Below, piece by piece: positions 4,222 through 18,127 of a stretch of 19,197 nt of DNA. The notes under the pieces are model-generated. The model was not told the DNA's origin and searched no databases. It saw nothing but the letters and a program-made list of their open reading frames with translations. Source of the DNA: a virus. Taxonomy: Duplodnaviria > Heunggongvirae > Uroviricota > Caudoviricetes. The stretch covers positions 1 through 19,197 of IMG/VR virus record IMGVR_UViG_2667527789_000020. The stretch is one strand, 5' to 3'. Every line of letters starts with the position of its first letter. The first letter of the stretch is position 1. Both the position numbers and the translations under genes were made by a program.

Positions 4222-4806
4222 TCAACAATGAATTTTTAGTAATTGCTCCACAGTCATATTTTTAATTGCGCTCCGGTTTACAAGAGTCCAGCCTTGTTTC
4301 TCCAGATAAAACTGGAAGGTATCCAGGGTGCAGACCATTGCACCATCAGGAACGGTTTCAGTGAATTTGATATTGCCGTGTTCGTCGAGACGGATAACCA
4401 GGGTACGTCCGTCCCCGTGAATCATTTTGTCGGGAGACGGGGCGTTATTCTGGCGCAGTTCTTTCTCCATGCGATCGAACTCAGCGATGTAGGCTTCTTT
4501 AAATGCAGCGGCTTTTTTGCCGGTGAAGCCCATCACCAGGAAAACGAAGCCGTTTTTGGTGATTTGGTACATAGGGAGTTTGCGCCCGGTTGAGTCGGTA
4601 TATTCACTGGGCGAAAAATTTCGCTCAGTGAATTCTGCTGAACAGTCTAGACGTGAAATTTTTGCCAGTACATCTTTGTGTGGTTTCCGGAAATACTCGG
4701 CAACAGCTAAAGAGGATGTAACAGCACGCCCATTGGCGATAGTAATTTCAGGGTGAGAAAGGGCAGGGATAGTAGCCATGATGGCAGCCTCCATGATGAA
4801 TTTCAT
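4222..4806 (-). CDS. Rha-family phage regulatory protein (antirepressor-like)
   Basis: Core ITIANGRAVTSSLAVAEYFRKPHKDVLAKISRL...MYQITKNGFVFLVMGFTGKKAAAFKEAYIAEF is typical of the Phage_pRha domain. The six-frame ORF extends to 5073 but the first ~90 codons are compositionally non-protein-like and contain a terminator-like hairpin. Likely start is ATG at 4806 (SD-like GGTGGTGAG upstream) or ATG at 4779 (GGAGG, 8-nt spacer). Confidence 0.7.
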   Translation of the reverse strand: MKFIMEAAIMATIPALSHPEITIANGRAVTSSLAVAEYFRKPHKDVLAKISRLDCSAEFTERNFSPSEYTDSTGRKLPMYQITKNGFVFLVMGFTGKKAAAFKEAYIAEFDRMEKELRQNNAPSPDKMIHGDGRTLVIRLDEHGNIKFTETVPDGAMVCTLDTFQFYLEKQGWTLVNRSAIKNMTVEQLLKIHC

Positions 4807-4943
4807 TAACTCACCACCGGAGGTAGCAATCTCATGGGTGGTGAGACGCACAGGGTTGCTACAACCGGTCATCATGGAACCCGGCCAGCCTTGCGGCTGC
4901 CCTGCACGCCCCACCATAATCTGAATGTGGCTGTGCATTACGC

Positions 4944-4968
4944 ATAAAAAAACCGCCTGAGCGCGGTT
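4944..4968 (-). terminator. Candidate Rho-independent terminator on the minus strand
   Basis: Minus-strand RNA would form AACCGC / GCGGTT stem (6 bp, 6-nt loop) followed by a 7-U run (plus-strand A7 at 4946-4952). Lies between the DicF-like element and the Rha start. Confidence 0.4.
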
Positions 4969-5264
4969 ATGCGCCATGATGAACATCGGGGTAGCAATCC
5001 CGGCACCCGCTTTATGAGGTGCAGGTGCACTATAATTCCACCCGTTCTGGTTTTCAATAGCTACATTCAACATTTTCTCTTACCTTTCATCACCGAAGTG
5101 AACTTTGTCGATGCAGTGCCTGGTGCCTCCAGGTGACGTTAACCAGTTAACAATTAACGCCGGAATACAGAAGTATGCCCGTTACGCCCCGTAAAAGACC
5201 ACTTTACGGTTTTAACTGTTCCGCGTGCGCTTAGCCGCATTCACCGCATCACAAAATTCACTTT

Positions 5265-5322
5265 AAAAAGGGCGGACATCAGAAAGCTAATAAACTGATG
5301 CCGCCAAAGGTACCACTGCCAT
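5265..5322 (-). ncRNA. dicF: DicF-like small RNA candidate with intrinsic terminator
   Basis: Minus-strand transcript ...ACCUUUGGCGGCAUCAG-UUUAUUAGCUUU-CUGAUGUCCGCC-CUUUUU: an 11-bp GC-rich stem (one bulge), 12-nt loop and U5 tail. The UUUGGCGG.AUCAGUUU and CCGCCCUUUUU segments resemble E. coli DicF as I recall it. Lies in the same operon and upstream of the dicB homolog, as in Qin. The 5' end is not defined. Confidence 0.45.
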
Positions 5323-5590
5323 TGAAACATGGAGATGTTGTGGCGGGGTTGTCACTCAGGCATATGGTCAACCTGACAACCCGGTGTCCTCAATGAGGGG
5401 AAAAGAAATAAAAACCCCCAGCCATATTTACCGCCGCGCCATTTCGCGGATTGCCACAACCGGAAGCACACGGTCGAAGAAATCTAACGACAAGCCTTCT
5501 AAGGGAAAGAGCTTCGCCGTGCGCTTTCGTGTTATACCCTGACTTTTCAGGGTAAATTAACCAGTGGCAACCTGTTTTTACTGGTGCTAA

Positions 5591-5743
5591 TCAGTTAGTG
5601 TTTCTGGCTAACCAGCGACGCGCGCCAGCTTCGGTTTTAAACTTTTTACTTTTGGTATACGTCATCGCGGTAAACGTGCCGTCCTGGTTAGGGAACACAC
5701 CACATACCAGAGATTCGTTGTTGCCAAGATTGAGCGTATCCAT
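5591..5743 (-). CDS. Small protein (50 aa), YdfA/YdaF-like (DUF1391-like) first gene of the leftward operon
   Basis: ATG at 5743 preceded by GAGG with a 5-nt spacer (TGAGGTCAACATG). The six-frame ORF extends to 5797, but that upstream start has no RBS. Product MDTLNLGNNESLVCGVFPNQDGTFTAMTYTKSKKFKTEAGARRWLARNTN. Family assignment is from position and vague recall only. Confidence 0.5.
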   Translation of the reverse strand: MDTLNLGNNESLVCGVFPNQDGTFTAMTYTKSKKFKTEAGARRWLARNTN

Positions 5744-5923
5744 GTTGACCTCATTTCCCCTTAACGCCGGGGTAGCGGAACAAAAAACCTGCTGCATAGT
5801 TAAACGTAATCCCCGCCGTCATGTTCATACGCCTCAGGCTGGCTACTTAACCCCTGACCACTGCCGGGTAACTCGAAGTATTGCCCTGCGTTCTGTGGGG
5901 CGGGGTGGGTTTATGGATACAAT

Positions 5924-6006
5924 TTACAAATTAAAATTTAACTGGTCAACATGTTTATTATTAAATTTGTAATTGCGAGCTGTTGCATTAGTCCCAAAAT
6001 GGGACT
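5924..6006. promoter_or_regulatory. Candidate operator/promoter region (OL-like, divergent leftward promoter and higBA promoter)
   Basis: AT-rich. Inverted repeat TTACAAATT (5924-5932) / AATTTGTAA (5964-5972), and a second perfect palindrome AGTCCCA-aaa-TGGGACT (5990-6006) immediately upstream of higB. The TTACAAAT half-site recurs in the repressor/cro intergenic region. Confidence 0.4.
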
Positions 6007-6017
6007 ACTATACAGTT

Positions 6018-6320
6018 ATGAAGATTATCTCAGTTAAAACACTCAGGGATTTTTGGGCGGAGAATCCTGATGCAGAACAACCGCTAAGGGCATGGGTGGA
6101 TGAGGCGGCAAAAGCTGACTGGAAAAGCCCAGCAGACATTAAGGCACAATACCGAACGGCCAGTATATTGAAAAACCGGCGCGTGGTATTCAACATAAAA
6201 GGTAATCATTACCGTTTAATTGTTGCAATTGCGTATCAGCGAGGATGGGTATTTGTTAAATTCATCGGAAACCACAAGGAATACGATGCTATTGATGCTG
6301 ATACCATCGAACTGGAGTAA
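6018..6320 (+). CDS. higB: Type II toxin HigB (RelE/ParE superfamily mRNA interferase), 100 aa
   Basis: ...VVFNIKGNHYRLIVAIAYQRGWVFVKFIGNHKEYD parallels E. coli HigB (VFNVGGNELRVVAMV...HKEYD). Directly followed by an HTH antitoxin gene 2 bp downstream. The six-frame ORF starts at a TTG at 5973; ATG 6018 is preferred. Confidence 0.85.
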   Translation: MKIISVKTLRDFWAENPDAEQPLRAWVDEAAKADWKSPADIKAQYRTASILKNRRVVFNIKGNHYRLIVAIAYQRGWVFVKFIGNHKEYDAIDADTIELE

Positions 6321-6322
6321 GC

Positions 6323-6682
6323 ATGAACATCAAACCTATTCGTACAGAGCAAGATTATGAAGCCGCGTTGCGTGCTGTTGAACCCATGTTCGACAATGAG
6401 CCCGAAATTGACACGCCTGAGGGGGATTTTTTTGAGGTGATGTGTTTGCTAATAGAGGAATATGAAAAAAAACATTATCCCATTGAGCCACCATCCCCAA
6501 TTGAAGCTATAAGATTTCGCATGGAACAGCAGGGGCTGACTGTGAAAGATTTGGAACCCGCAATTGGGAAAAAAAATCGGGTTTATGAGGTGTTGAATGG
6601 TACCAGAAGCCTTACGTTACCAATGATTCGCCGTCTTCATAATCAATTTGGTATCCCCCTGGAAAGCCTGGTTGGATTATAA
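6323..6682 (+). CDS. higA: Antitoxin HigA (XRE-family HTH), 119 aa
   Basis: Acidic N-terminal part and C-terminal HTH (LTVKDLEPAIGKKNRVYEVLNGTRSLTLPMIRRLHNQFGIPLESLV). Toxin-first gene order with a 2-bp spacing is typical of higBA. Confidence 0.85.
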   Translation: MNIKPIRTEQDYEAALRAVEPMFDNEPEIDTPEGDFFEVMCLLIEEYEKKHYPIEPPSPIEAIRFRMEQQGLTVKDLEPAIGKKNRVYEVLNGTRSLTLPMIRRLHNQFGIPLESLVGL

Positions 6683-6697
6683 AATCTGCTAGTCATT

Positions 6698-6746
6698 TGC
6701 CTGATGCTCGTTCCAGAAAAGGAATGCATCAGGCAGTTTTGTTTTT
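6698..6746 (+). terminator. Rho-independent terminator after higA (convergent with the repressor 3' end)
   Basis: TGCCTGATGC (6698-6707) pairs with GCATCAGGCA (6726-6735), with an inner TTCC/GGAA stem, followed by GTTTTGTTTTT. Overlaps the stop codon of the minus-strand repressor gene. Confidence 0.6.
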
Positions 6747-7121
6747 CTGCCGCAGTAACTCTTCAAGTTTCCGTTTATAGAAATCGCGTTTTTGCTCCAT
6801 ATCACGAATGATCTGCTCTGCGTCGCTTTGAGGTAACTCATCTAAAAGCGATATGATTTTTCGTTGTTGTTCTGTAAGTTGCGGTTGGTTGTCATTACTG
6901 GATACAGCCATTTTATCGCCGAGAGTTTCTTCTTCCATAAAGAACCAATGGACGGGATGTTGTGAGAGCTCTGCTAATTTTTCCAGTTTATCCATTCTTG
7001 GCATCACGCCTTTCAACCAACCTTGCACGGATTGGGGTTTTACACCAAGACGTCTTCCCAGCTCTGACTGGTTTATATTCAATTCCTGCAACACCTGCTG
7101 AAGGCGTTTTACAAAGATCAT
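6729..7121 (-). CDS. DicA-like prophage repressor (N-terminal XRE HTH, C-terminal coiled-coil), 130 aa
   Basis: HTH LQQVLQELNINQSELGRRLGVKPQSVQGWLKG, then a charged helical tail (EQQRKIISLLDELPQSDAEQIIRDMEQKRDFYKRKLEELLRQ) with the same architecture as DicA. No S24 peptidase domain. ATG at 7121 preferred (GAGGGG, 5-nt spacer) over the in-frame GTG at 7127. Divergent from the cro-like gene. Confidence 0.8.
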   Translation of the reverse strand: MIFVKRLQQVLQELNINQSELGRRLGVKPQSVQGWLKGVMPRMDKLEKLAELSQHPVHWFFMEEETLGDKMAVSSNDNQPQLTEQQRKIISLLDELPQSDAEQIIRDMEQKRDFYKRKLEELLRQKNKTA

Positions 7122-7176
7122 CACCACCCCTCGTAAACTAGTTCCGCGATCCTACAGAAAAAATTGATAAGTGGCA

Positions 7177-7214
7177 TTACAAATAGAAGTTGAAATTTAA
7201 ATTTAAATTTGTAA
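7177..7214. promoter_or_regulatory. Candidate operator (OR-like) in the repressor/cro divergent promoter region
   Basis: Inverted repeat TTACAAAT (7177-7184) / ATTTGTAA (7207-7214) flanking three tandem AAATTT units. Lies in the 126-bp intergenic space between the repressor start and the ydaS-like start. Confidence 0.4.
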
Positions 7215-7247
7215 TCATCGGTGTCATCGTAAAGTTCGGAGGGAAAC

Positions 7248-7508
7248 ATGCAAAAAAGTACTCAAGTGAAAATCCTGTCAATAATGAGCCAATCAGAATT
7301 AGGGCGTCGTCTTGGTAAAACACCGCAAACCATAAGTGGGTGGTTTAAAAAACGAGTGCCAGCGGAGGAGGTTATACCAGCATGTGAGGCGCTTGACTGG
7401 GGAGTAACTCCGCATGAATTGCGCCCTGATAAATACCCTAATCCAACCGATGGTTTACCTGTTGAGTATCAGGCTAACGCACAAGCAGCGGCGGGAGTTG
7501 ATTCATGA
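7248..7508 (+). CDS. ydaS: Cro-like HTH protein, YdaS family (86 aa)
   Basis: SQSELGRRLGKTPQTISGWFKKRVPAEEVIPACEALDWGVTPHELRPDKYP matches the YdaS/Cro-like pattern (LG.TPQ..S.W...VPAE.V...E......HELRPD.YP). ATG preceded by GGAGGG. Divergent from the repressor. Confidence 0.7.
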   Translation: MQKSTQVKILSIMSQSELGRRLGKTPQTISGWFKKRVPAEEVIPACEALDWGVTPHELRPDKYPNPTDGLPVEYQANAQAAAGVDS

Positions 7509-7942
7509 AAATCAAGCATGAGCACATCCGCATGGCGATGAATGCGTGGCTGCTTTATCCGAGGGTAGGGCGCAAAAAAATCGCTGATGATATAGCGACA
7601 GCATATTTTGAGCTTGAAATGACTTATCCACCAATGCATGACACCTCTACGACAGAGGGTATTGGATTGAATATACAAAATATTTTTCGCTGGCTTGAAA
7701 AGGATACGCCTGATGCTGTTGAAAAAATTCAGGCACTAATTCCGGCTATCCTGACTGTTCTTCCGCGTGAACTGCGTTATCACCTCAGTATTTTTGACAC
7801 TGTTGAGCGCCGTGCATTACTGGCGGCGCAGGAAGCGTTGAGCACGGCAATTGATGCACATGATGATGCTGTCCAGGCCGTTTACCGGAAAGCGTATTTC
7901 AGCGACGGCGGGTCATCCGGCGAGTCTGTTGTGGTGCATTGA
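7505..7942 (+). CDS. ydaT: YdaT-family protein (CII-like regulator / putative toxin YdaT), 145 aa
   Basis: Begins MKIKHEHI; C-terminal LIPAILTVLPRELRYHLSIFDTVERRALLAAQEALSTAIDAHDDAVQAVYRKAYFSDGGSSGESVVVH matches Rac YdaT as I recall it. ATGA overlap with the ydaS-like stop. Confidence 0.7.
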   Translation: MKIKHEHIRMAMNAWLLYPRVGRKKIADDIATAYFELEMTYPPMHDTSTTEGIGLNIQNIFRWLEKDTPDAVEKIQALIPAILTVLPRELRYHLSIFDTVERRALLAAQEALSTAIDAHDDAVQAVYRKAYFSDGGSSGESVVVH

Positions 7943-8028
7943 TATTTATGCCAGCCCCCTGCTGATTCTGTTGATTGGGGAATCACAGAATATCACCAGA
8001 GGATGGTTCGTCACAAGATGAGGCAATT

Positions 8029-9039
8029 ATGGCCGCATTACCATACATGCAACTGTACATAGCTGATTACCTAGCTGACACCATGCATTTGTCCGCAGAG
8101 GAGCACGGTGCGTATTTGTTGCTGATGTTCAATTACTGGCAAACAGGGAAACCAATACCTAAAAACAGGCTGGCAAAAATTTCCCGTCTGACTAACGAGC
8201 GATGGGCTGATGTGGAACCATCCTTGCGGGAGTTTTTTTGCGATAACGGCGATGAATGGGTGCATCTTCGGATTGAGGAAGATCTGGCATCAGTCAGGGA
8301 AAAATTAACCAAAAAATCAGCCGCCGGAAAAGCATCTGTTCAGGCCAGAAGAAGCAGAAAGGAAGCATATGTTCAAACAAAACAAGAGAGAGATTTAACA
8401 GGCGTTCAAACAAATGTTGGTGTTGTGTTTGAACATGACGCAAACACAAAAGCAACTAATAAAGATACAGATCTAAAAGAATTAAACCCCACACATAACG
8501 TGCGTGAACGCGAGAGTATTCCGACCAGTGAGTCGCATGGTGCGCCGTTGCAGACAGCCGAACCTGAATACCTGGACGGCCTGAGCGAACCGATCGGGAA
8601 ATTTTCGATGACCACTGTCTGGCAGCCGTCGCCGGATTTTCGACAACGGGCAGCAGTGTGGGGTATGGCTCTGCCTGAGCCGGAATTTACACCTGCTGAG
8701 CTTGCCGCATTCCGGGATTACTGGATGGCGGAGGGGAAGGTTTTCACACAGGTTCAGTGGGAGCAGAAATTTGCCCGCCACGTGCAGCACGTCAGGGCAC
8801 AGGTAAAACCAGTCAGCAAGGGGGGAAGCCATGCAGCATCAGGTGGCACGGCATCACGGGCAATTCAGGAAATCCGGGCAGCACGCGAACAGTGGGAACG
8901 AGACAACGGATTTATCAGCAACGGAAACGGCCTGGAAGCTGTGGGAGCTTATGGGGGAGGTGTATTCGAACCGCTGGACTCAGAAGAACGGGGCCGCACC
9001 TTCGAAGCTCTGGATTGCCCAGATTGGTGCGATGACTGA
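8029..9039 (+). CDS. Replication initiation protein, YdaU-like (DUF1376 N-terminal domain, DnaT-like C-terminal region)
   Basis: ATG at 8029 preceded by GAGG with a 5-nt spacer; the six-frame ORF starts at a TTG at 7975. N-terminus YMQLYIADYLADTMHLSAEEHGAYLLLMFNYWQTG is the DUF1376 signature. C-terminal half (SMTTVWQPSPDFRQRAAVWG...FTPAELAAFRDYW) resembles DnaT-like domains. Confidence 0.7.
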   Translation: MAALPYMQLYIADYLADTMHLSAEEHGAYLLLMFNYWQTGKPIPKNRLAKISRLTNERWADVEPSLREFFCDNGDEWVHLRIEEDLASVREKLTKKSAAGKASVQARRSRKEAYVQTKQERDLTGVQTNVGVVFEHDANTKATNKDTDLKELNPTHNVRERESIPTSESHGAPLQTAEPEYLDGLSEPIGKFSMTTVWQPSPDFRQRAAVWGMALPEPEFTPAELAAFRDYWMAEGKVFTQVQWEQKFARHVQHVRAQVKPVSKGGSHAASGGTASRAIQEIRAAREQWERDNGFISNGNGLEAVGAYGGGVFEPLDSEERGRTFEALDCPDWCDD

Positions 9040-9493
9040 ACAGCAAATCCGGCAGGTCTGTCGTCAGTGCATGGACCGCTGCCGGGCGGGTGAAACGTGG
9101 CCCCCGGACCTGGCTGAGTTTGTTGCGCTGATTTCGGAGAGTGGGGCAAATCCATTTGGTCTTACGGTGGATGCCGTGATGGAAGAGTACCGGCGCTGGC
9201 GCAATGAATCCTGGCGATACGACGGGAGTGATAAATACCCGTGGCCACAGCCTGTGCTGTACCACATCTGCCTCGAAATGCGTACCAGAGGGATTGAGCG
9301 CCAGATGACGCAGGGTGAGTTAAAACGACTTGCGGAACGGCAACTGACGAAATGGGCAAAGCATGTTGGTAACGGGATGAGTGTTCCGCCAGTGCGACGA
9401 CAACTGGAAGGGGCGAAACACCCGAAAGGGCCAACGCCAATTGAATGGCTGAAACAGGAATACGAACGCCGGAAGGCAGCTGGTTTTATTTGA
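8831..9493 (+). CDS. Lambda P-like replication protein (helicase loader family)
   Basis: PPDLAEFVALISESGANPFGLTVDAVMEEYRRWRNE...DKYPWPQPVLYHICLEMRTRG...QGELKRLAERQL parallels lambda P (PSPGQFVAWCREE...GLPNVSELVDMVYEYCRKRG...ESYPWKSNAHYWL...TDAELRRKAADEL). ATG at 8831 has a strong SD (AAGGGGGGAAG) but overlaps the upstream gene by 209 bp in another frame. Alternative starts are 8951 and 9032. Confidence 0.6.
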   Translation: MQHQVARHHGQFRKSGQHANSGNETTDLSATETAWKLWELMGEVYSNRWTQKNGAAPSKLWIAQIGAMTEQQIRQVCRQCMDRCRAGETWPPDLAEFVALISESGANPFGLTVDAVMEEYRRWRNESWRYDGSDKYPWPQPVLYHICLEMRTRGIERQMTQGELKRLAERQLTKWAKHVGNGMSVPPVRRQLEGAKHPKGPTPIEWLKQEYERRKAAGFI

Positions 9494-9526
9494 ATCTGAG
9501 AAGCGATTTTGTAGGAGGAAATTTTA

Positions 9527-10288
9527 ATGGAAACCGTTTTTGACGCACTGAAAGCAATGGGAAAAGCCAGCTCTGTTGGACTGGCTGAGCGGCTTGATAT
9601 CAGTCGTGAAGAGGTTCTCAACGAACTGTGGGAACTCAAAAGAAATGGCGTTGTTGATAAAGCGGGTCACATCTGGTTTCTGGCTGGCGAAGGTGAATCC
9701 GGGGTAACCGAAGAGCAGCCAGAACAGTCTGAAGTACCGGATGTGCTGACCGGGGAGGTCGAACAAAAAGTTACCGCAGACATGATGATTGAGTTTATCG
9801 GTCAGGAGGGGGCTAAAACGTGTGAGGAACTGGCGGATAAGTTCGGTGTTAGCATTCGCAAGGTTGCTTCCACGTTGGCGGTGGTAACCGCAACGGGACG
9901 CCTGGCACGCGTAAATCAGAACGGTAAATTTCGTTACTGCATGCCGGGCGATAATTTACCAGCAGAGCCGAAAGCCGTGCCGGTAACGGAAAATGATGGT
10001 AAGGCCTTTCCTCAGCCAGCAGGTGTTGCGTTACCAGTACAGGAATCTGCAACACAGGAAGATATTAAAACAGAAACAGTGGCGGACATTGTGCAGTCGT
10101 TGCCATCGTTTACCGAAACGCAAGCAGATGAGCTGATTTTTCTGTCCCTGTGCAGGGCAAACCTGGCGCTGCGCAGGGCGAAAAGTGATGTTCAGAAGTG
10201 GGAGCGAGTCTGTGCCGCGCTGCGGGAACTGAACAAACACAGGGATATTCTCCGGGATATTACCGCCACCAGAGAGCTGCTGCGGTGA
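9527..10288 (+). CDS. Hypothetical protein with two tandem winged-helix-like modules (253 aa)
   Basis: ATG preceded by AGGAGG. Two internally similar segments ([30 protein letters not shown] and [32 protein letters not shown]) look like wHTH units. Function unknown. Confidence 0.65.
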
Positions 10289-10320
10289 GTGGCTGGAAGA
10301 AGTGGCGCTGGGCGGAAATT

Positions 10321-10602
10321 ATGATACTCCGGCAGTGTGCGGGAACGATGACAGTCGAAAGCATCGGCAGTCTGATTGGCCGTAGTGGGGCTGCCGTCAG
10401 GACGAAAGCGCGGGAACTGGGTATCTGCATGATGTTACGGGGTGATTATCACCAGTCAGCCAAATGTTCACAGCGTGATATTGAGCTGGCGCGGCAACTG
10501 CATCAGCGTGGCGTACCCCGACGGGAAATTGCCGAAAAGTTTGGGATGAAGTTGGGCGCAGTGAATAACTACGTTTATTTCGACAGGAGGGTTCAGGCGT
10601 GA
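10321..10602 (+). CDS. Small HTH-domain protein
   Basis: Two HTH-like segments (TVESIGSLIGRSGAAVRTKARELGI and VPRREIAEKFGMKLGAVNNYV). Start is uncertain: GTG 10285 overlapping the upstream stop, ATG 10321 or ATG 10342, all with weak RBS. Confidence 0.5.
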   Translation: MILRQCAGTMTVESIGSLIGRSGAAVRTKARELGICMMLRGDYHQSAKCSQRDIELARQLHQRGVPRREIAEKFGMKLGAVNNYVYFDRRVQA

Positions 10603-10904
10603 GGGTGAGAATTTATATCGCCGGTCCGATGACGGGATATGAAAATTTCAACCGTGAGGCGTTTCACAGGGCGGAAGAAGCACTGAAACGGGAAGGGCAT
10701 ACCGTTTTAAACCCGGCAGTACTTCCGGACGGACTGACACAGCCACACTACATGGATATTTGCATGGCGATGATACGCTGCGTGGATGCGATTTACATGC
10801 TGAAAGGCTGGCAGCGGTCGGCAGGCGCTAAGGCAGAACTGGCACTGGCGGAGAAACTGGGACATGCGGTTATTTTCCAGGAGGCAACCAGTGAGAAAAA
10901 TTAA
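10599..10904 (+). CDS. DUF4406-family protein (nucleoside 2-deoxyribosyltransferase-like fold), 101 aa
   Basis: GTG start overlapping the upstream stop (GTGA), preceded by AGGAGG. N-terminal MRVRIYIAGPMTGYENFNREAF is the characteristic DUF4406 signature. Confidence 0.7.
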   Translation: MRVRIYIAGPMTGYENFNREAFHRAEEALKREGHTVLNPAVLPDGLTQPHYMDICMAMIRCVDAIYMLKGWQRSAGAKAELALAEKLGHAVIFQEATSEKN

Positions 10905-11541
10905 TTATCAGACGCTACGTGAGATAGCAAAACTGGCAACCCAGGGCGAATGGGTCGCATTCATTTCGCCGGGCACTGATACATATGCGGTGCATACGCC
11001 GGGGGATGAACGTTGCGGAGACATTATCAAATGGCCTGGCTTTGATGACCAGAAAAATGCAGAGAACAACGCAGAATTTATTGCAGCTTTCAACCCTGAA
11101 GTAGTACAGGCACTGCTGGATGAACGGGAAGCCCAAAGCAAACGTATTGCAGAGCTGGAAGCTAATCTTGTGGCGCTGGCGGCGGAGAATGCACTTGCTC
11201 GTAAAGCAGTTCAGGCATTCTGCGATGTTGTTGGCGACAACACCGAGGTTATCTGCGAGGAGGTTGGGAGAGATGGCGTTCTGGTTATTTTGGAGGCCAT
11301 GAAGGCAACAGGAAATATGCCAGCCACCGATGCTTTCCTGTCTGAAGTGCGGGCGCTGGGGGTGGATGCTGCTATAGAAGCTGCAAAAAATCTGGTGGCC
11401 CAAGAATATGAGTATAAGGATTTCAAAGCGGCGCAGAGTGATTGCTGTATGCACCCTGGTTCAGACCTGATAGGGAAGGTTGAAATGACTGAGTGGTTAG
11501 TTGACTTTGCTGCCCAGCTTCGCAAAGGAGTTCAGTCATGA
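10891..11541 (+). CDS. ead/Ea22-like family protein
   Basis: GTG start (AGGAGG, 6-nt spacer) giving VRKINYQTLREIAKLATQGEW..., the Ea22-like N-terminal motif, followed by a coiled-coil segment (AQSKRIAELEANLVALAAENALARKAV). The six-frame ORF begins upstream at 10864 inside the DUF4406 gene. Confidence 0.6.
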   Translation: MRKINYQTLREIAKLATQGEWVAFISPGTDTYAVHTPGDERCGDIIKWPGFDDQKNAENNAEFIAAFNPEVVQALLDEREAQSKRIAELEANLVALAAENALARKAVQAFCDVVGDNTEVICEEVGRDGVLVILEAMKATGNMPATDAFLSEVRALGVDAAIEAAKNLVAQEYEYKDFKAAQSDCCMHPGSDLIGKVEMTEWLVDFAAQLRKGVQS

Positions 11542-11867
11542 GAGCTTCAATTAGTTATGTCGACGATTGCCACCTAAGCGTGCGTGTTGATGAAATTGTG
11601 TCATCCGTGCCAACTTTTCCGACAAAAAATGCAGCCGTTAATGCAGGCGCGCCATTCGGATGGAGGACGGCAGTTCGTATTGAGCGTCGATTCGAAAACG
11701 TTTGGGTGGTAGGTAAGAAATGCTTCCAAAGCGATCGCTCTGCGGGGCTTAATTTTGAAGCATATCGATTCCCGTTCCTCCGATGGGAGAAAGAGGGCGG
11801 GATTACAAAATGCCCGATTCTTTCCGTGCGCAGATTCAAGCAGGAGGCAACCAGTGAGCAAGATTGA
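11538..11867 (+). CDS. Hypothetical protein (109 aa)
   Basis: ATGA overlap with the upstream stop. Its C-terminus (...KQEATSEQD) is encoded by the same 18-bp junction sequence that forms the C-terminus of the DUF4406 gene (...FQEATSEKN), which suggests a genuine gene at a module joint. Confidence 0.4.
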   Translation: MRASISYVDDCHLSVRVDEIVSSVPTFPTKNAAVNAGAPFGWRTAVRIERRFENVWVVGKKCFQSDRSAGLNFEAYRFPFLRWEKEGGITKCPILSVRRFKQEATSEQD

Positions 11868-12198
11868 CTATCAGGTATTGCGTGAGGCAGCACAAAACTA
11901 TCGGTCGATGCTGGCGTGGTATCAGGAGAAACCAGACAGTCCAAACGCTGAGCAGGATTGTGATGCAGCTTTGGCTGCGTTTAAGCGTGAAATCCGTCAT
12001 CGTGAAGTGGGTATTATCGCTGATTTGCTGGATGAACTGGAGGAAGCAAAACAGCGTATCGACGAGCAGGAGTCCCGCATAGTGAAGTTACCAGAACCAT
12101 TCAAGCTGGCTAAATCATCAAGTGGATTAACGTACTACTACGCTGATGAGGTCAATGCCGCACTGACTGCTGCTGGTATTCGCATAGAAGGAGAGTGA
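11854..12198 (+). CDS. Ea22-like N-terminal-motif protein (114 aa)
   Basis: GTG start within the repeated junction. VSKIDYQVLREAAQNY parallels VRKINYQTLREIAKLA of the upstream Ea22-like gene, followed by a coiled-coil segment (LDELEEAKQRIDEQESRIVKL). Confidence 0.5.
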   Translation: MSKIDYQVLREAAQNYRSMLAWYQEKPDSPNAEQDCDAALAAFKREIRHREVGIIADLLDELEEAKQRIDEQESRIVKLPEPFKLAKSSSGLTYYYADEVNAALTAAGIRIEGE

Positions 12199-12199
12199 G

Positions 12200-12553
12200 A
12201 TGACCACTATTACCAAAGAGCGACTGCAATGGCTGGCTAACATTTCTGGCCGCGATGACATTGACGATATAGACGGCGGTGAAATTCGTGAGCTGGCGCT
12301 TATCGCGCTGGCATCGCTGGAAGCGAAGCCTGTAGCTTCATGTATTATTGAAGATGGGGGCATGTGTGTTGACGGGTTCGGTGAGTATGTTGGTCACTCG
12401 CTGCCTGATGGAACGCACCAGCTTTACGCCGCCCCGCCAGTGCCTAGTAAGTTGCCGCGTGAATACAGAAACGGTTGGCCTCTTGCATATAGTGATTATG
12501 CTGAAGGCTGGAACGACTGCCGCGAAGCCATGCTTCAGGGAGATAAATCATGA
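12200..12553 (+). CDS. Hypothetical protein (117 aa)
   Basis: ATG preceded by GGAGAG, 1 bp after the upstream stop; the downstream gene starts with an ATGA overlap. No recognisable domain. Confidence 0.55.
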   Translation: MTTITKERLQWLANISGRDDIDDIDGGEIRELALIALASLEAKPVASCIIEDGGMCVDGFGEYVGHSLPDGTHQLYAAPPVPSKLPREYRNGWPLAYSDYAEGWNDCREAMLQGDKS

Positions 12554-12912
12554 TTAATCGTATCAAGCTGGAGCACATCCTCGAATATGCCAGGCAGCAG
12601 AAGCATACTGGTCAGCATTGTAAAATTCCACCAGGGGATATGGTTGAAATCATGGAGATTGCCATGCGCAAGGCTGGCAATTCTCCGGTAACTCCGGATG
12701 GTTGGATAAGCTGTAGTGAGCGAATGCCGAATACCAAAACAGCCGTTCTTGTTGCCGTGGAGTTTGACAGGAAAGGTGACTGGCGAATGAAATGGGCTAC
12801 TTACATCCCGGGGCATCATGACGCTAATGATGGGTGGATAATTCCTGGTGCGTCGTGGAAACCGTCACACTGGATGCCGCTACCAGAACCGCCGAAGGAG
12901 GTGCGCCAATGA
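12550..12912 (+). CDS. DUF551-domain protein (120 aa)
   Basis: C-terminal DGWISCSERMPNT...VLVAV...W......W...SHWMPLPEPP is the characteristic DUF551 signature of lambdoid nin-region proteins. Confidence 0.65.
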   Translation: MINRIKLEHILEYARQQKHTGQHCKIPPGDMVEIMEIAMRKAGNSPVTPDGWISCSERMPNTKTAVLVAVEFDRKGDWRMKWATYIPGHHDANDGWIIPGASWKPSHWMPLPEPPKEVRQ

Positions 12913-13138
12913 GCTGGCCTGAGGCCTTCTCAAATGTTGGTATTGCAATGGCGCTGGTGGTGTATTCGATTTGCCGCTGGGGATAAAAACGGTTTGCGGG
13001 GAAAGAAGAGTTAAGTAGAATTGCTGCGGGTGCCTGAGGCTGTCTGCCTCAGGCATGAACACCAAAAGGCAGATAGAGAAAGCCCCAGTTAACATTACGC
13101 GTCCTGTAAGACGCTCAACATTAATCTGAGGCATATGG

Positions 13139-14263
13139 ATGCGGATGAAAGAATTAAATAAATTCAGAGTGATAGACCTCTTTTGTGGGGCAGGTGGATT
13201 ATCTTATGGTTTTCTTCATGGAGAGATGTCTGACTACTTTGAAAGTATCCTTGCTATTGATAATAATGCTGCAGCTATAAATACCTACAATGCCAATTTT
13301 GGTTTGCATGGAGTTCAGGCAAATATTGAGGAGTGGGCATCCAGCAATACTGTTCCTGAGGCTGATGTGGTCATAGGTGGCCCCCCGTGTCAGGGATTCA
13401 GTTTATTGAATAAGAATCGTTATGGTGATCACCGAAGAGCATTGTGGGAGCCTTATATGGATGTCATTGAGCGTTCAAGGGCTTGCATGTTCGTCATGGA
13501 AAATGTCCCCGGATTGCTGATAAGCGATGAGTTTGCGGACATTACGTTTAGAGCGAAATCCATGGGCTTTATTCTGCTTAATCCAATGGTGTTGAATACT
13601 GCTGACTATGGAGTACCTCAGACAAGAAAACGAACGATAGCAATCGGTATCAAACGAGAACTCTTCGATGAGCATAGTATTCCGGCGTTCCCGCCAGCAC
13701 CAACGCATCGTTCCCCTGATAAGGATGTCGCTTTGCCTGAATGGGTCTGTACGCGTGATGCAATTGGTGACTTACCTGCTCCTGTTGGAACTGATATTCG
13801 TAATGAACTTCCTCCGCTGAACTTACATTTTGGGCGTAATCCCACACCTGTTTCTCTGGAGCGATATAAAGCGGTTCCACCAGGAGGTAACCGTTTCGAT
13901 TTACAGAAAAAAAGACCTGATATAACCCCGGCGTGCTGGCTAAAAAAGAAATCTGGAGGGACCGATTTGTTTGGACGTCTGTGGTGGGACAGACCTTCAG
14001 TAACGATTCGTACTGAGTTTTTCAAACCGGAGAAAGGGCGATATTTACATCCGGAAGAGGATCGGCCAATAACTCATCGTGAGGCAGCGAGATTAATGTC
14101 TTTTCCTGATAATTTCATTTTTACCGGTTCAAAAACTGAGATTGCAAAGCAGATCGGGAATGCTGTTCCACCGCTATTTGCGGCAAAAATCGCACAATAT
14201 GTGTATGGAGTTTTGCAGGGACGGTATAAGAATAACATCAGTAAGAATAGTCAAGCAGCCTGA
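13139..14263 (+). CDS. DNA (cytosine-5)-methyltransferase, modification subunit of a Type II R-M system (374 aa)
   Basis: Motif I DLFCGAGG (FxGxGG), motif IV GGPPCQGFS (catalytic PC), motif VI ENV, motif X-like QIGNAVPPLFAAKIA. ATG preceded by GAGG with a 7-nt spacer. Visibly more AT-rich than the flanking phage genes. Confidence 0.9.
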   Translation: MRMKELNKFRVIDLFCGAGGLSYGFLHGEMSDYFESILAIDNNAAAINTYNANFGLHGVQANIEEWASSNTVPEADVVIGGPPCQGFSLLNKNRYGDHRRALWEPYMDVIERSRACMFVMENVPGLLISDEFADITFRAKSMGFILLNPMVLNTADYGVPQTRKRTIAIGIKRELFDEHSIPAFPPAPTHRSPDKDVALPEWVCTRDAIGDLPAPVGTDIRNELPPLNLHFGRNPTPVSLERYKAVPPGGNRFDLQKKRPDITPACWLKKKSGGTDLFGRLWWDRPSVTIRTEFFKPEKGRYLHPEEDRPITHREAARLMSFPDNFIFTGSKTEIAKQIGNAVPPLFAAKIAQYVYGVLQGRYKNNISKNSQAA

Positions 14264-14276
14264 AGGAAATCCAGAA

Positions 14277-15154
14277 ATGAATGGAGATTTGGTTGACAGC
14301 ATAGTTGGTTTTGCTGAAGCCAGAAAGGAGTTTCATGCCCAATTGTTACTGAATACGCTCACAATTAATACTGCCGGAGTTGTTAGTAACGCAGATAGCA
14401 GTAACAAAAACAGTAAAGCTATAGCAAGAGAAATTGCTCGCTTCTTGCAGGCTGAAACGATTGGTGAACGTGTTGCAGGGCAAACATCTGGTAATCAGTT
14501 TGAGAGTATCTGCGCAGAGTTTATAAAAAAACCTTTTTTAAACTCAGCCACTTACGCCCTGGGAAATGGAATGTATATCAGGTTTCTGGTAGAAACAGAT
14601 TAGAGATAGCTAAATATGAACAATATGCCCATCTTATAGCATTGGATAGTGCTGCAAAAAGTAATCCTCAGCTAGCTGCTGCACTGGGGAGTGATTATAC
14701 GATTTCACCAGATATTATTGTTGAAAGAGAACCTGAATGCGATCAAGTTATCAACAGTCCTGAATTACTGGTGGATGATTCTGTTACCCGCATGTCAGCT
14801 CTCAGGAGTTCGAATGGTGGGAAACCAATATTACACGCAAGTATTTCCTGCAAATGGACAATAAGAAGCGACCGGGCCCAGAATGCTCGTTCTGAGGCAT
14901 TAAATCTTATTCGCAACCGTAAGGGAAATCTCCCTCATGTAATGGTTGTTACTGCTGAGCCTACTCCAAGTCGTCTGGCGTCTATTGCTCTTGGTACTGG
15001 TGATATAGATTGCGTGTACCATTTTGCGCTTTATGAACTTATATCAGCAGTTGAAATACTGGGGCTCAGCGATGCAGCTGACATGCTTTCCGTGATGGTT
15101 AATGGTAAAAGATTAAAGGATATTTCTGATCTTCCCTTGGATCTTGCAGTCTGA
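14277..15154 (+). pseudogene. Type II restriction endonuclease, Cfr10I/NgoMIV-like, reading frame split by a 1-nt shift in a homopolymer region
   Basis: N-terminal piece 14277-14603 (frame 3) and C-terminal piece open from 14504 to 15154 (frame 2) overlap around an A7 tract (14525-14531) and a T6 tract (14534-14539). The C-terminal piece carries SPD-X46-SCK-X13-E (SPDIIVERE...HASISCKWTIRSDRAQNARSE), matching the PD-X46-55-K-X13-E active-site arrangement of the Cfr10I/NgoMIV family. Starts 14 bp after the C5-methyltransferase stop. Joined length is about 290 aa, typical for this family. Confidence 0.6.
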
Positions 15155-15226
15155 CATCTCTATGTAAATAGAGTCTGTCATATTTTAACTGTGATGGCAC
15201 GTCATTGACTTCAGTACATTTTTACT

Positions 15227-15252
15227 AACCTGCTTCGCGGGTTTTGTTTTTT
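15227..15252 (+). terminator. Rho-independent terminator downstream of the R-M cassette
   Basis: AACCTGC-ttc-GCGGGTT stem (7 bp with one G-U pair) followed by TTGTTTTTT. A weaker hairpin (GACA.CTCTA / TAGAG..TGTC) lies directly after the endonuclease stop at 15153-15179. Confidence 0.55.
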
Positions 15253-15324
15253 CCTGGCATTCTGGTTTACAATCCACACGCCAGCCTGAACAACTGGCAC
15301 CTGCTGCGCCAGCAGAGACAACCG

Positions 15325-15597
15325 ATGGCGCACAATACCAAACACCACAATTCTGATACCGACCCTGCCAGCAGGTACGGGCGGCGTTCTCACACATTCA
15401 AATCTGACTGGTTCCAGCATGACCCATGCACTGAAGAACAGGCCGAATGGCTGATCCAGTGTTACCGCAGGCGCGGATATGAGTTTGAGAAAGCCCTCAG
15501 CCTCGATTATCGTCACTGGATAATCTCTGTCAGGCTCCCTTATTCCGAACGCCCACCTCGTCCGTCCCGCACATTCCAGCAGCGCATCTGGAGGTAA
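15325..15597 (+). CDS. Hypothetical protein, translationally coupled to the DUF968 gene
   Basis: Stop at 15595-15597 lies 1 bp before the DUF968 ATG. The six-frame ORF starts at 15244 inside the terminator, so the internal ATG at 15325 (MAHNTKHH...) is preferred. RBS is weak and no domain is recognised. Confidence 0.4.
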   Translation: MAHNTKHHNSDTDPASRYGRRSHTFKSDWFQHDPCTEEQAEWLIQCYRRRGYEFEKALSLDYRHWIISVRLPYSERPPRPSRTFQQRIWR

Positions 15598-15598
15598 C

Positions 15599-16657
15599 AT
15601 GCGGGTATTACTTCGACCTGTTCTGGTACCGGAACTCGGGATGGTGGTCCTTAAGCCGGGTCGTGAATCAATGTCAGCATTCCATAACGGCAGAATATTG
15701 GTGGAGCCGGAACCGAAAAACATGCGCGGTCTGCCGTCCGGAGTCGTTCCCGCCGTTCGACAGCCGCTGGCAGAGGATAAAACATTACTGCCATTTTTCA
15801 GCAACGAACGGGTGATTCGTGCTGCGGGTGGCGCTGGTGCACTGTCTGACTGGTTATTACGTCACGTGAAATCCTGCCAGTGGCCACACGGCGATTATCA
15901 TCACAGCGAAACCGTTATTCACCGTTACGGTGCTGGCGCAATGGTGTTGTGCTGGCACTGTGACAACCAGCTGCGCGACCAGACATCAGAATCACTCGAT
16001 CAACTTGCTCAGCAGAATCTGGTTGCCTGGATGATTGACGTCATCCGTCATGCAATAAGCGGTACGCAGGAGAGGGAGTTATCGCTGGCCGAATTATCCT
16101 GGTGGGCGGCCTGCAATCAGGTGGTGGATGCACTACCTGAGGCAGTAGCGCGTCGTTCGCTGGGATTACCGGTGGAAAAAATCCGCTCCGTATACCGTGA
16201 GAGTGACATCGTACCGGGAGAACAGACAGCCATCAGCATACTGAAGCAGCGCACAAAAAATATTGCGCTGCCACTTCACGTCCACCAGCAACAGCCCCCA
16301 CCCCAGGAAAAGACGTTAGTAAGCATCGCCGTTGATCCGGAGTCTCCGGCTCAGTACCTCCAGCGCCAGAAACCACAACGGGAAGAGATGCCTGTATACA
16401 CGCGCTGGGTAAAAACGCAGAAATGCATGACGTGTGGCAATCAGGCAGATGATCCGCATCACATCATTGGTCATGGACTGGGAGGCATGGGAACAAAGGC
16501 TGACGATTTGTTTGTTATTCCGTTATGCCGTAAATGCCATAACGAACTACATGCCGGAGTAAAAGATTTTGAAGAGAAACACGGCAGTCAGCTGTTGTTG
16601 CTGATTCGTTTTTTAATGCACGCGAGAAATTCGGGTGTTCTGAAGTGGAAAGCATAA
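15599..16657 (+). CDS. DUF968-domain protein (YdfU-like) with C-terminal HNH-like Cys/His motif, 352 aa
   Basis: ATG preceded by GGAGG. C-terminus CMTCGNQADDPHHIIGHGLGG...LCRKCHNELH is an HNH/zinc-finger-like CxxC...HH...CxxH arrangement. Sits immediately upstream of rusA, as ydfU-like genes do in lambdoid prophages. Confidence 0.8.
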   Translation: MRVLLRPVLVPELGMVVLKPGRESMSAFHNGRILVEPEPKNMRGLPSGVVPAVRQPLAEDKTLLPFFSNERVIRAAGGAGALSDWLLRHVKSCQWPHGDYHHSETVIHRYGAGAMVLCWHCDNQLRDQTSESLDQLAQQNLVAWMIDVIRHAISGTQERELSLAELSWWAACNQVVDALPEAVARRSLGLPVEKIRSVYRESDIVPGEQTAISILKQRTKNIALPLHVHQQQPPPQEKTLVSIAVDPESPAQYLQRQKPQREEMPVYTRWVKTQKCMTCGNQADDPHHIIGHGLGGMGTKADDLFVIPLCRKCHNELHAGVKDFEEKHGSQLLLLIRFLMHARNSGVLKWKA

Positions 16658-17026
16658 ATGACCGAGCGCATAGAATTTGTTTTGCCTTACCCGCCGACGG
16701 TGAACACTTACTGGCGACGCCGTGGCAGCACATATTTTGTATCAAAATCCGGGGAGCGTTATCGCCGGGCAGTGGCACTTATTGTTCGCCAGCAGCAGTT
16801 GAAATTAAGCCTGTCCGGACGGCTGGCAATAAAAATTATTGCAGAACCACCGGATAAGCGCCGCCGTGACCTGGACAATATTCTGAAAGCACCGCTGGAT
16901 GCGCTGACGCACGCGGGGTTGTTAATGGACGATGAACAGTTTGATGAAATCAATATTGTACGTGGTCAGCCAGTATCTGGTGGACGGCTGGAAATAAGAA
17001 TTACAGAGGTGGGTGTGCATGAATAA
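16658..17026 (+). CDS. rusA: Holliday junction resolvase RusA (crossover junction endodeoxyribonuclease), 122 aa
   Basis: LPYPPTVNTYWRRRG...DKRRRDLDNILKAPLDALTHAGLLMDDEQ...GGRLEIRITEVG matches E. coli RusA (LPWPPSNNRYYR...[22 protein letters not shown]...GGRLELTITEMG), including the catalytic Asp cluster. Confidence 0.9.
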   Translation: MTERIEFVLPYPPTVNTYWRRRGSTYFVSKSGERYRRAVALIVRQQQLKLSLSGRLAIKIIAEPPDKRRRDLDNILKAPLDALTHAGLLMDDEQFDEINIVRGQPVSGGRLEIRITEVGVHE

Positions 17027-17708
17027 CCAGTATTTACAGTTTGTTCGTGAGCAACTCATGATTGCCACTGCAGATCTCAGTGGGTCGACAAAAGGCCAGC
17101 TGGAAGCCTGGCAGGAAAATGCCCTGTTCGATACAGGGCGTTACAGACGCAAAAAAATTCGTTACCGCGATGAGGTAACCGGAAAAATGATCACGCGGGA
17201 TAATCCCCCGATCCAGGGTAAACAATCACTGGCGAAAGGCTCATCAATTGCGCTGGTCAGTCCTGTTGAGTTTGCAACATCATCGTGGCGGCGTGCCCTT
17301 CTGGAACTGGAAGAACATCAGAAGGCGTGGTTGTTGTGGTGTTATGGCGGAAACATTTGCTGGGAGCATCAGATCGCGATAACGCAGTGGGTGTGGAGTG
17401 AATTTAAAACTCAGTCCGGCTCCAGAAAAATTGCAGTGAAAACGCTGGAGCGTGTGAAGAAGTTGATCTGGCTGGCGGCACAGGATGTCAGAGGATGGGT
17501 TACCGGGTGTGAGGTCTACCAGAGACAGGAGCTTGCCAGACTGTGTGGAGTTAAGCCTGATAACTGGAGCCATAATTATGCGAACTACTGGCGTGAGATG
17601 TGCGATATTTTTAAGCGTCTCGATAGAGAATCCTTGATTTGCTCCGTGAAAATAAGAGCGCAACAAAAAGCGACCTTTTCACGACGAGATATTGCAAAAG
17701 TCAATTAA
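17019..17708 (+). CDS. Putative late-gene antitermination protein Q (Qin/QuuQ-like), 229 aa
   Basis: ATG at 17019 overlaps the rusA stop (the six-frame ORF starts at GTG 17013). Position immediately after rusA and immediately upstream of a strong terminator is the canonical Q location. Family assignment is by position and size, not by recognised motifs. Confidence 0.55.
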   Translation: MNNQYLQFVREQLMIATADLSGSTKGQLEAWQENALFDTGRYRRKKIRYRDEVTGKMITRDNPPIQGKQSLAKGSSIALVSPVEFATSSWRRALLELEEHQKAWLLWCYGGNICWEHQIAITQWVWSEFKTQSGSRKIAVKTLERVKKLIWLAAQDVRGWVTGCEVYQRQELARLCGVKPDNWSHNYANYWREMCDIFKRLDRESLICSVKIRAQQKATFSRRDIAKVN

Positions 17709-17770
17709 ATCGCGTATGTTTCGTATAAATCTGATATTTTGCCGATTTTGTACACGATGGCAAAGTAAGA

Positions 17771-17797
17771 AAAAACCACCGCCAGGTGGTTTTTTTA
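17771..17797 (+). terminator. Rho-independent terminator (tR'-like) downstream of the putative Q gene
   Basis: AAAAA-ACCACC-gcca-GGTGGT-TTTTTTT: a 7-bp stem flanked by an A-run and a T7 run, 63 bp after the Q stop. Confidence 0.7.
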
Positions 17798-17919
17798 TGT
17801 CCGAAAATCTCGTCAGTACAGTAAACGCGCTGGTGGCGGTGAATACCGGTCTTTCAGCTTGCTGGCTTTTTTGACAAGAGTTATTGGTGTGTCACGTTAA
17901 CCGGAAAAGGGAAAAAGAC

Positions 17920-18117
17920 ATGCTGAAACAGCAGGATATGACCGAAACCGCCAGAGTGGTGTTTAATGAATTAAGCGTCACTGAACCGGCGACAGTCGGG
18001 GAGATTGCGCAGAATACTTATCTTTCACGTGAACGCTGCCAGTTAATACTGACCCAGCTTGTTATGGCGGGTCTGGCAGACTATCAGTTCGGTTGTTACA
18101 GACGCCTTCAGTCCTGA
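17920..18117 (+). CDS. Small putative winged-helix DNA-binding protein (65 aa)
   Basis: ATG at 17920 preceded by AAGGGAAAAAG; the six-frame ORF starts upstream at 17884. EPATVGEIAQNTYLSRERCQLILTQLVMAGL looks like a wHTH. Stop codon is embedded in a terminator. Confidence 0.45.
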   Translation: MLKQQDMTETARVVFNELSVTEPATVGEIAQNTYLSRERCQLILTQLVMAGLADYQFGCYRRLQS

Positions 18118-18127
18118 AGGCTTTTTT
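18104..18127 (+). terminator. Rho-independent terminator
   Basis: GCCTTCA-gtcc-TGAAGGC stem followed by TTTTTT. Overlaps the stop codon of the preceding small ORF. Confidence 0.65.

Follow-up and report, generated by a model that had tools for sequence, protein, structure and literature searches.

The question raised by the present locus is why two gene junctions of a single prophage carry the same 18-nt sequence, at once the end of one gene and the beginning of the next, and whether this sequence has a part in the shuffling of the genes that flank it. The window (the whole stretch of DNA analysed, 19,197 nt, positions 1 to 19,197 of IMG/VR virus record IMGVR_UViG_2667527789_000020) is a Rac-like lambdoid prophage, and the sequence in question, CAGGAGGCAACCAGTGAG, hereafter the linker, is present in the whole window as two exact + strand copies, at 10878-10895 and 11841-11858. 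It is considered fairly probable that the linker is a shared gene-junction module of small accessory genes in enterobacterial lambdoid phages, and that it acts as a homology patch for the reassortment of cassettes.

Anatomy of the two junctions

The features on which the argument depends are the following.

10878-10895, + strand: linker copy 1, comprising the tail codons of the DUF4406 gene (QEATSE), AGGAGG, a 6-nt spacer and GTG; the GTG at 10891 starts a 216-aa Ea22-like gene
11841-11858, + strand: linker copy 2, comprising the tail of ORF109 (QEATSE), AGGAGG, the spacer and GTG; the GTG at 11854 starts a 114-aa Ea22-like gene
10878-10932, + strand: conserved head 1, the linker and the first approximately 13 Ea22-like codons; the upstream stop TAA (10902-10904) is made by ATT-AAT (Ile-Asn)
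11841-11895, + strand: conserved head 2, the linker and the first approximately 13 Ea22-like codons; the upstream stop TGA (11865-11867) is made by ATT-GAC (Ile-Asp)
10599-10904, + strand: DUF4406 gene (nucleoside 2-deoxyribosyltransferase-like), Pfam domain at residues 4-93 of 101
10891-11541, + strand: Ead/Ea22-like gene, 216 aa, Pfam Ead_Ea22 E 2e-26, 93.5 bits
11538-11867, + strand: ORF109, without Pfam match, phrog_16670 (unknown function)
11854-12198, + strand: Ead/Ea22-like gene, 114 aa, Pfam Ead_Ea22 E 5e-7, 30.7 bits

An original prediction, made from the letters alone, had proposed that the repeat is exact, that each copy encodes the C-terminal QEATSE of the upstream gene, supplies the AGGAGG ribosome-binding site (RBS) and contains the GTG start of an Ea22-like gene, and that diverged but related sequence follows; each of these points is borne out. 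The chance expectation for the linker is 0.01 matches, none of 200 dinucleotide-preserving shuffles attains two copies, and no third site with three or fewer mismatches was found in the window. Each copy opens a longer direct repeat of 55 nt (family D1; 10878-10932 against 11841-11895), which is exact over the 18-mer and 78% identical overall. At both sites AGGAGG lies 6 nt before the GTG and the upstream and downstream open reading frames (ORFs) overlap by 14 nt, so that the Shine-Dalgarno (SD) sequence and start of the downstream gene fall inside the upstream ORF, which is the anatomy of a translationally coupled junction; the linker spans the upstream stop and the downstream start at both window sites and at all related loci. 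The two upstream ORFs terminate in AVIFQEATSEKN (FQEATSEKN and stop, ORF 10599-10904) and RRFKQEATSEQD (FKQEATSEQD and stop, ORF 11538-11867). RefSeq/PGAP places starts at these same two GTGs in the 100% identical chromosome of E. coli FHI_NMBU_11 and names both genes ead/Ea22-like.

The sharing is confined to the joint. The DUF4406 protein and ORF109 are unrelated apart from their 8-residue tail, and in the former the last eight residues (QEATSEKN) come from the linker and head and lie outside the Pfam domain. On the downstream side both proteins belong to the Ead/Ea22-like family (PF13935, which holds lambda Ea22 and P22 Ead), exceeding its curated cut-off of 27 bits, and they have a common N-terminus, M-x-K-I-[ND]-Y-Q-x-L-R-E, with an overall identity of 27%. 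The 216-aa protein is itself internally mosaic, with piecewise matches to 13 PHROG families, and its C-terminus (FAAQLRKGVQS and stop) is similar to the EaE/gp37-type tails (QLRKGGNQ and stop). The layout of the family consists of a conserved N-terminal head, a variable middle, a recurring coiled-coil motif (NPATVLALLDE[LR]E) and variable C-termini.

Reuse of the linker between unrelated genes

The original prediction would have fallen had the linker been missing from gene boundaries in related phages, and it is found there in abundance: the exact 18-mer is present in 110 contigs of the viral collection scanned, and the head matches 324 phage records. The samples described below are dominated by redundant E. 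coli prophage contigs, counts of contigs and contexts are counts among the matches listed, and the upstream and downstream classes rest on ungapped identity thresholds. When the 110 contigs are laid out in register, their left sides fall into unrelated classes that differ from the first one or two bases of the 18-mer, while the right sides usually stay similar for approximately 40 nt (the codons of S-K-I-[D/N]-Y-Q-A-L-R-E-A-A-E) and then diverge completely. Ten upstream classes and 29 downstream body classes can be distinguished among these contigs, and many of the possible combinations are realised; the DUF4406 upstream class alone pairs with 12 downstream classes. The proteins downstream of the 18-mer amount to 75 distinct sequences, themselves patchworks.

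Two further samples were drawn independently of the 18-mer. In the first, anchored on the Ea22 N-terminal peptide, 52 of the 68 distinct Ea22-type starts carry the linker with three or fewer mismatches, 30 of them as the variant AAGGAGGCAACCAGTGAG and three as the exact 18-mer, and the stable core of the linker is the 16-nt sequence GGAGGCAACCAGTGAG. In the second, anchored on the DUF4406 protein minus its tail, homology to the window is lost between 10883 and 10932 in 32 of 34 distinct contexts at the 3' junction. Ten DUF4406 junction contexts break right after CAGGAG(G) and continue with a different leader and gene, the DUF4406 tails then reading FQEEVQ, FQEVGSEY or FQEKTQ before the stop. 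The SD hexamer thus closes the DUF4406 module and at the same time opens the downstream one, and constitutes their overlap. Behind the DUF4406 gene, at least 15 contigs (such as L001, L004 and L009) carry a 16-codon stub (MSEINYQELRQVKEKA and stop) that resembles a decayed Ea22 head, and a comparable unannotated stub, VSKIDYQALREIAKHQ, lies at approximately 900-1050 in HK97, between gp37 and a putative terminator before xis. Such decayed heads behind the linker may be scars of exchanges that took place just past the head.

When the viral loci are pooled, 220 distinct contexts match the 16-nt core with at most one mismatch, and they are distributed over 30 upstream classes. Ea22-type heads follow in 148 of them; the other 72 head at least 10 mutually unrelated gene families, with N-termini that include MSNSARLQ, MSESKCQI, MSNQWRPD, MSGKRMTN and MSQQTRIS, most of which stand behind several upstream classes. 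To regard the linker merely as the 5' end of Ea22 genes does not suffice, and this view was rejected, as one third of the contexts head other families. Among phages, at least 11 gene families thus follow the linker and 30 upstream classes precede it, with non-homologous flanks. At the joints with heads other than Ea22 the linker is the sole shared sequence. About two thirds of the linker sites run on into the conserved Ea22 N-terminal coding stretch of approximately 40 nt, so that the usable homology is often nearer 60 nt than 18. A scan of a 596-Gb genome collection with the 16-nt core was uninformative on taxonomic range: approximately 280 chance matches are expected there, and the matches listed belong to unrelated taxa (Paraburkholderia and assorted metagenome-assembled genomes).

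The two edges of the shared block differ. In pairwise comparison of 173 distinct contexts, homology ends 0 nt to the left of the 18-mer in 80% of 14,878 context pairs; to its right, the loss of homology is spread over roughly 10-60 nt. Linkage across the block was expressed as the adjusted mutual information (AMI) of each polymorphic site with the upstream class and with the downstream body class in 128 distinct Ea22-headed contexts, a measure that depends on the clustering thresholds and on the redundancy of the sample. Immediately to the left of the linker, polymorphic sites are associated with the upstream class (AMI 0.47-0.65) and weakly with the downstream class, and balanced polymorphisms at +20 to +31 follow neither flank (AMI 0.1-0.25). 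The AMI with the downstream body then climbs to 0.25-0.35 at +43 to +55 and to 0.45-0.57 at +56 to +88. A single founding event per joint, at the block's edge, would leave linkage between head and body as tight as linkage within the body. Repeated crossovers or conversion inside the head would produce such a gradient, which is offered as supporting evidence and not as proof.

The linker also occurs in named phages. The records matched by the head include Stx phages, HK97, mEp213, HK75, N7, Gally, P22-like Salmonella phages and a Shigella phage, and most of these alignments begin at the second base of the 18-mer (query base 13). HK97 (L314, AF069529) carries the variant AAGGAGGCAACCAGTGAG after gp37 (FADQLRKGGNQ and stop), in Gally a linker variant forms the EaE/EaD junction, and a copy with one mismatch is the hkaH/hkaG junction of HK620. 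In HK97, HK620 and the P22-like phages the linker or a near variant is located in the early-left operon, and it is therefore not specific to the nin region; the placement in that region by the original prediction holds for both window sites and does not extend to the element as a whole.

At least 10 unrelated upstream families read the linker in frame 1 (as [Q/K/A]EATSE) and stop 8 nt after the start codon, their TGA or TAA stops arising where the downstream gene encodes Ile-Asp (ATT GAY) or Ile-Asn (ATT AAY). A large EaE/gp37/Ea22 C-terminus family (QLRKGGNQ and stop) and a family ending in AMWRKGGNQ read it in frame 3 and stop on a GTGA overlap. One upstream class is intergenic, and all others run straight into the linker. 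No upstream class in the wider classification uses the frame that would fuse the two proteins. The bias towards frame 1 seen in the first sample was dropped, since it is gone once the frame-3 families are included, the fusing frame alone being avoided. This arrangement suggests that the downstream gene would be translationally coupled to whatever gene precedes the linker.

No structured RNA was detected at the joint. Local RNA folds at the linker, computed with RNA parameters only, are not more stable than those of shuffled sequence (z +0.35, +1.2, -0.8 and -0.5), no Rfam family matches the site, and no self-complementarity of the 18-mer is evident by inspection. In L314 and L316, where the upstream gene ends in CAGCTTCGCA, the predicted fold of the approximately 30 nt about the linker has GCUUC paired to GGAGG in the RBS; this pairing, seen in neither window context, is without statistical support, and it would hide the ribosome site unless the upstream gene is translated.

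Natural rearrangements and a model of exchange

The window and the relatives L192 and L067 differ by units whose ends lie at linkers or at their SD hexamers.

10878-11840, + strand: 963-bp unit between the linker copies (the 216-aa Ea22-like gene and ORF109), not present in E. coli 2018-166 (L192)
11531-11846, + strand: single-gene cassette of 316 bp (ORF109 body and the next AGGAG), AGGAG at both ends, without counterpart in the relative L067
11525-11542, + strand: left joint of the ORF109 cassette, where stop and start overlap as ATGA; a third, degenerate junction, AAGGAGTTCAGTCATGAG, that agrees with the linker at 11 of 18 positions

In L192 the 114-aa Ea22-like gene follows the DUF4406 gene immediately, with the linker as their joint. 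The 150 nt upstream of its linker are 93% identical to the context of copy 1 and 22% identical to that of copy 2, whereas the 200 nt downstream are 94% identical to the context of copy 2 and 33% to that of copy 1. The head of L192 is chimeric, agreeing first with copy 1 (ATTAATTATCAG) and then with copy 2, and the switch maps within the linker and approximately 25 nt. This arrangement is that expected from a crossover between the two copies, by which the 963-bp unit would be gained or lost; L192 is no direct descendant of the window. L067 corresponds to the window minus the cassette: its 216-aa Ea22-like gene is followed, through a full variant AAGGAGGCAACCAGTGAG at the position of the degenerate third junction, by the 114-aa-type Ea22 gene, and the 316 extra bases of the window (ORF109 and the next CAGGAG) sit between AAGGAG and GCAACCAGTGAG. 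In L193 five other small genes are located between the two linkers. Natural recombinants are thus represented by the L192 switch within the linker and approximately 25 nt and by the L067 difference at AGGAG, alongside the linkage gradient.

The model proposed here assigns the linker two roles. In expression it would serve as a translation-initiation region (AGGAGG, 6-nt spacer, GTG) laid over the end of the preceding gene. In recombination the 16-nt core, usually together with approximately 40 nt of Ea22 N-terminal codons, would constitute a short homology patch, near-identical across phages and within one phage, in which phage recombinases of the Red-beta, RecT or Erf type, or RecA, could cross over. 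Such a crossover would reassort the genes to the left and right of the patch and would add or remove cassettes between two copies. In the window the two copies, 963 bp apart, would bracket one exchangeable unit, and the ORF109 cassette would sit at the SD hexamer of what is a third linker copy in a relative. It is possible that microhomology at the SD hexamer seeds new joints, as the AGGAG-bounded ORF109 cassette and the breaks after CAGGAG may indicate. Rad52-like phage recombinases are known to create mosaics at short or diverged homology (PMC3945230), and RecET can use 5-13 bp, at low frequency (PMC2327257). From these comparisons of sequence we infer that homologous recombination at the patch, rather than selection on random joints, probably produced the pattern, and that the linker would cause exchanges rather than mark where exchange is tolerated. 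The proposal that this is a conserved linker for cassette exchange accordingly stands in so far as it concerns combinatorial joining, with L192 and L067 in its support; the causal part assigned to the linker is inferred.

Several observations weigh against this model. The minimal efficient homology for Red and RecA is approximately 30 bp (PMC2327257), of which 18 nt falls short, and joints that share only the 18-mer would therefore need rare events. The linker is common and not obligatory: leaders unrelated to it precede 16 of the 68 distinct Ea22-type starts, and at the place of the EaE/EaD-type junction phage SE1 shows a variant that has four mismatches and starts with ATG. Selection on expression would by itself suffice to conserve the SD, spacer and start. 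Further, a single crossover needs the linker in both partners, so that homologous recombination leaves its first placement behind approximately 30 genes unexplained. Finally, the dominance of redundant E. coli prophage contigs and the reliance of the classes on ungapped identity thresholds also count here.

The serious rival holds that illegitimate joints arise at random, that selection keeps those with an intact downstream initiation region, and that the 18-mer has no role in recombination. This explanation, an instance of the classical alternative model of random joints and selection (PMC3233612, PMC3945230), is judged unlikely on balance, although the shared block does start exactly at the SD, where selection on expression would set its edge, the Ea22 starts with other leaders show no linker, and 18 nt is short for homologous recombination (PMC2327257). 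It does not, however, readily accommodate the spacer GCAACCA, which has no obvious need in initiation and is yet kept before at least 10 unrelated gene families, nor the near-absence, one class excepted, of variable-length intergenic remnants. In addition, the uncoupling of head polymorphisms from the body, graded with distance, and the chimeric head of L192 point to crossovers inside homology. A dedicated signal, either the site of a site-specific recombinase in the manner of integron attC or the binding site of an RNA or protein regulator, could account for the recurrence at cassette boundaries in arrays and for a spacer conserved beyond apparent need in initiation. It is nevertheless very unlikely, given that the 18-mer lacks evident self-complementarity, folds no better than shuffles and has no Rfam family, that the sole integrase in the window is the prophage integrase some 10 kb off, and that crossover points are spread over approximately 60 nt rather than fixed at one position.

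Explanations confined to this prophage fare still worse. The presence of an Ea22-family gene behind each of two direct copies lying 963 bp apart could suggest that an ancestral unit of a gene and an Ea22 gene was doubled locally in tandem and that the copies then diverged, with the 18-mer as what remains of their identity. This was rejected as highly improbable: the two upstream genes are not related to each other, identity is 27% in the Ea22 bodies against 78-100% in the heads, and other phages carry, in different arrangements, much closer relatives of each half. A chance coincidence of two 18-mers has next to no probability, excluded as it is by the shuffles and by the hundreds of homologous junctions elsewhere. 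Of the exchange model itself a stronger form can be stated, which is judged rather unlikely: the linker would be a selected, standardised connector between the accessory cassettes of the early-left and nin operons, more than a conserved ribosome site, and kept because single-strand-annealing recombinases can thereby shuffle, gain and lose cassettes in register.

Genomic setting and relation to known systems

The prophage carries two genes related to integration or recombination.

1-1020, - strand: integrase of the window prophage
1307-3745, - strand: RecE-like exonuclease, 812 aa, with an Exonuc_VIII N-terminal region and a C-terminal Rv2179c-like 3'-5' exoribonuclease domain

No RecT gene was found between the RecE-like gene and the integrase, the gap being only 287 nt, and for this reason no claim is made that the prophage's own recombinase acts at the linker. 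The RecE-like gene is followed by a Rha/Ash regulator, a repressor-type helix-turn-helix (HTH) protein, YdaT, a DUF1376/DnaT-type replication protein and a P-like replication protein; then by DUF1627, a small HTH protein, DUF4406, Ea22-like, ORF109, Ea22-like, ORF117 and DUF551; and finally by a C5-methyltransferase with a split NgoMIV-type endonuclease, DUF968, RusA and antiterminator Q. Both linker sites consequently belong to the nin region, the interval from the replication genes to Q. The 2.3-kb arrangement around them is kept to at least 80% in 4 of 5,426 complete E. coli genomes and pieces of it occur in 2,122; the region is strongly mosaic.

Other features of the window were also noted. 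The C5 cytosine methyltransferase is intact (13139-14263, within the region 13139-15154), and the NgoMIV-type endonuclease is split between an ORF at 14142-14603 (Pfam profile 1-72) and one at 14642-15154 (profile 108-275), so that it looks like a pseudogene next to a surviving methylase. An Rfam sok antitoxin RNA match (13028-13208, + strand, 61 bits, gathering score 59) overlaps the methyltransferase start from just upstream and is directly preceded by a short hydrophobic ORF at approximately 12910-12986 (MSWPEAFSNVGIAMALVVYSICRWG); the two may form a hok/sok-like toxin-antitoxin module. The Ash/Rha-type regulator ORF (4222-5073, - strand) contains, in its 5' part, Rfam matches to the C4 antisense RNA (4834-4921, - strand, 77.9 bits) and the Hfq-binding RNA isrK (4946-5022, - strand, 64.7 bits), a layout that corresponds to the P1/P7-type immunity arrangement within a lambdoid prophage. 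A 19-nt near-repeat of 89% identity (family D13), ATCAAGCATGAGCACATCC at 7511-7529 and ATCAAGCTGGAGCACATCC at 12562-12580, is located near the starts of the YdaT-like ORF (7505) and the DUF551 ORF (12550) and could be due to chance.

Morons, as Juhala and colleagues in 2000 and Hendrix are said to have described them, are extra genes between genes that are adjacent in related phages. By definition a moron has its own promoter and terminator. ORF109 resembles one in being extra relative to L067, where its neighbours adjoin directly. However, a simple consensus scan of 9400-13300, which weak signals could escape, found three promoter-like sites against 4.1 expected and four terminator-like sites against 3.4, with no plausible promoter/terminator pair flanking the cassettes. 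The ORF109 start overlaps the preceding stop (ATGA), its stop lies past the next gene's start, and the cassette is thereby fused start to stop into the operon. With neither an excess of such sites over shuffles nor gaps between the genes, these are operon-embedded cassettes, and the term morons used in the original prediction is not supported for them. The likeness to integron cassettes with attC is one of outcome only, namely arrays of small, promoter-less, exchangeable cassettes with a recurring short separator; unlike attC, the linker has no imperfect palindrome, no integron integrase and no fixed crossover point. With ordinary translationally coupled junctions (ATGA/GTGA overlaps) the linker has in common an SD inside the upstream coding sequence and a stop 8 nt past the start or on GTGA, but those junctions are specific to one gene pair, whereas the linker is reused between many unrelated pairs.

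The closest parallel is provided by the boundary sequences of lambdoid phages, an idea of modular phage evolution that is credited, in the passages available of two reviews, to Susskind and Botstein (1978) and to Clark et al. (2001), the latter for HK620 (PMC3233612, PMC2327257). As described in those passages, boundary sequences are, like the linker, short, located at gene boundaries, common to a subset of phages, flanked by unrelated sequence and proposed as sites of exchange, and HK620, the phage of Clark et al. (2001), has the one-mismatch linker copy at hkaH/hkaG. What the present data add to the account in these passages is that the element consists of RBS, spacer and start, and that it recurs in hundreds of contigs, in two operons and before at least 11 families, with a linkage gradient. 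No paper with the linker sequence was found in the searchable literature, a comparison that excludes the boundary list of Clark et al. (2001), which may already include it, given that HK620 carries the junction. The linker is thus not a new kind of element, and is best regarded as a well-documented case of lambdoid boundary sequences. For Ea22 itself, the passages searched of two papers (PMC7093339, PMC10834534) report that its sequence is highly diverse and that its domain layout has three parts, the N-terminal domain being short; their subject is the protein in the exo-xis region and its pro-lysogenic effect, whereas the genes of the window lie in the nin region; discussion of the junction was not found in those passages.

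The wider debate on mosaicism sets exchange targeted to short boundary sequences against random breaks filtered by selection (PMC3233612, PMC3945230, PMC2327257). For the targeted-exchange model the linker provides an unusually clean and abundant case, with hundreds of occurrences and dozens of partners on each side, and the model draws support from a defined core of 16-18 nt, from natural deletion and insertion variants and from a measurable decay of linkage across the patch. The linker explains the QEATSE-type C-terminal tail common to unrelated small phage proteins as well as the high variability of Ea22-family genes, and both annotation and the inference of phylogeny in these regions should reckon with it. 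It also offers a ready substrate for direct recombination assays. If the linker were indeed a standardised connector, every shuffle would deliver a working ribosome site and start, and lambdoid phages would possess a recombinase-agnostic, homology-based functional analogue of the integron.

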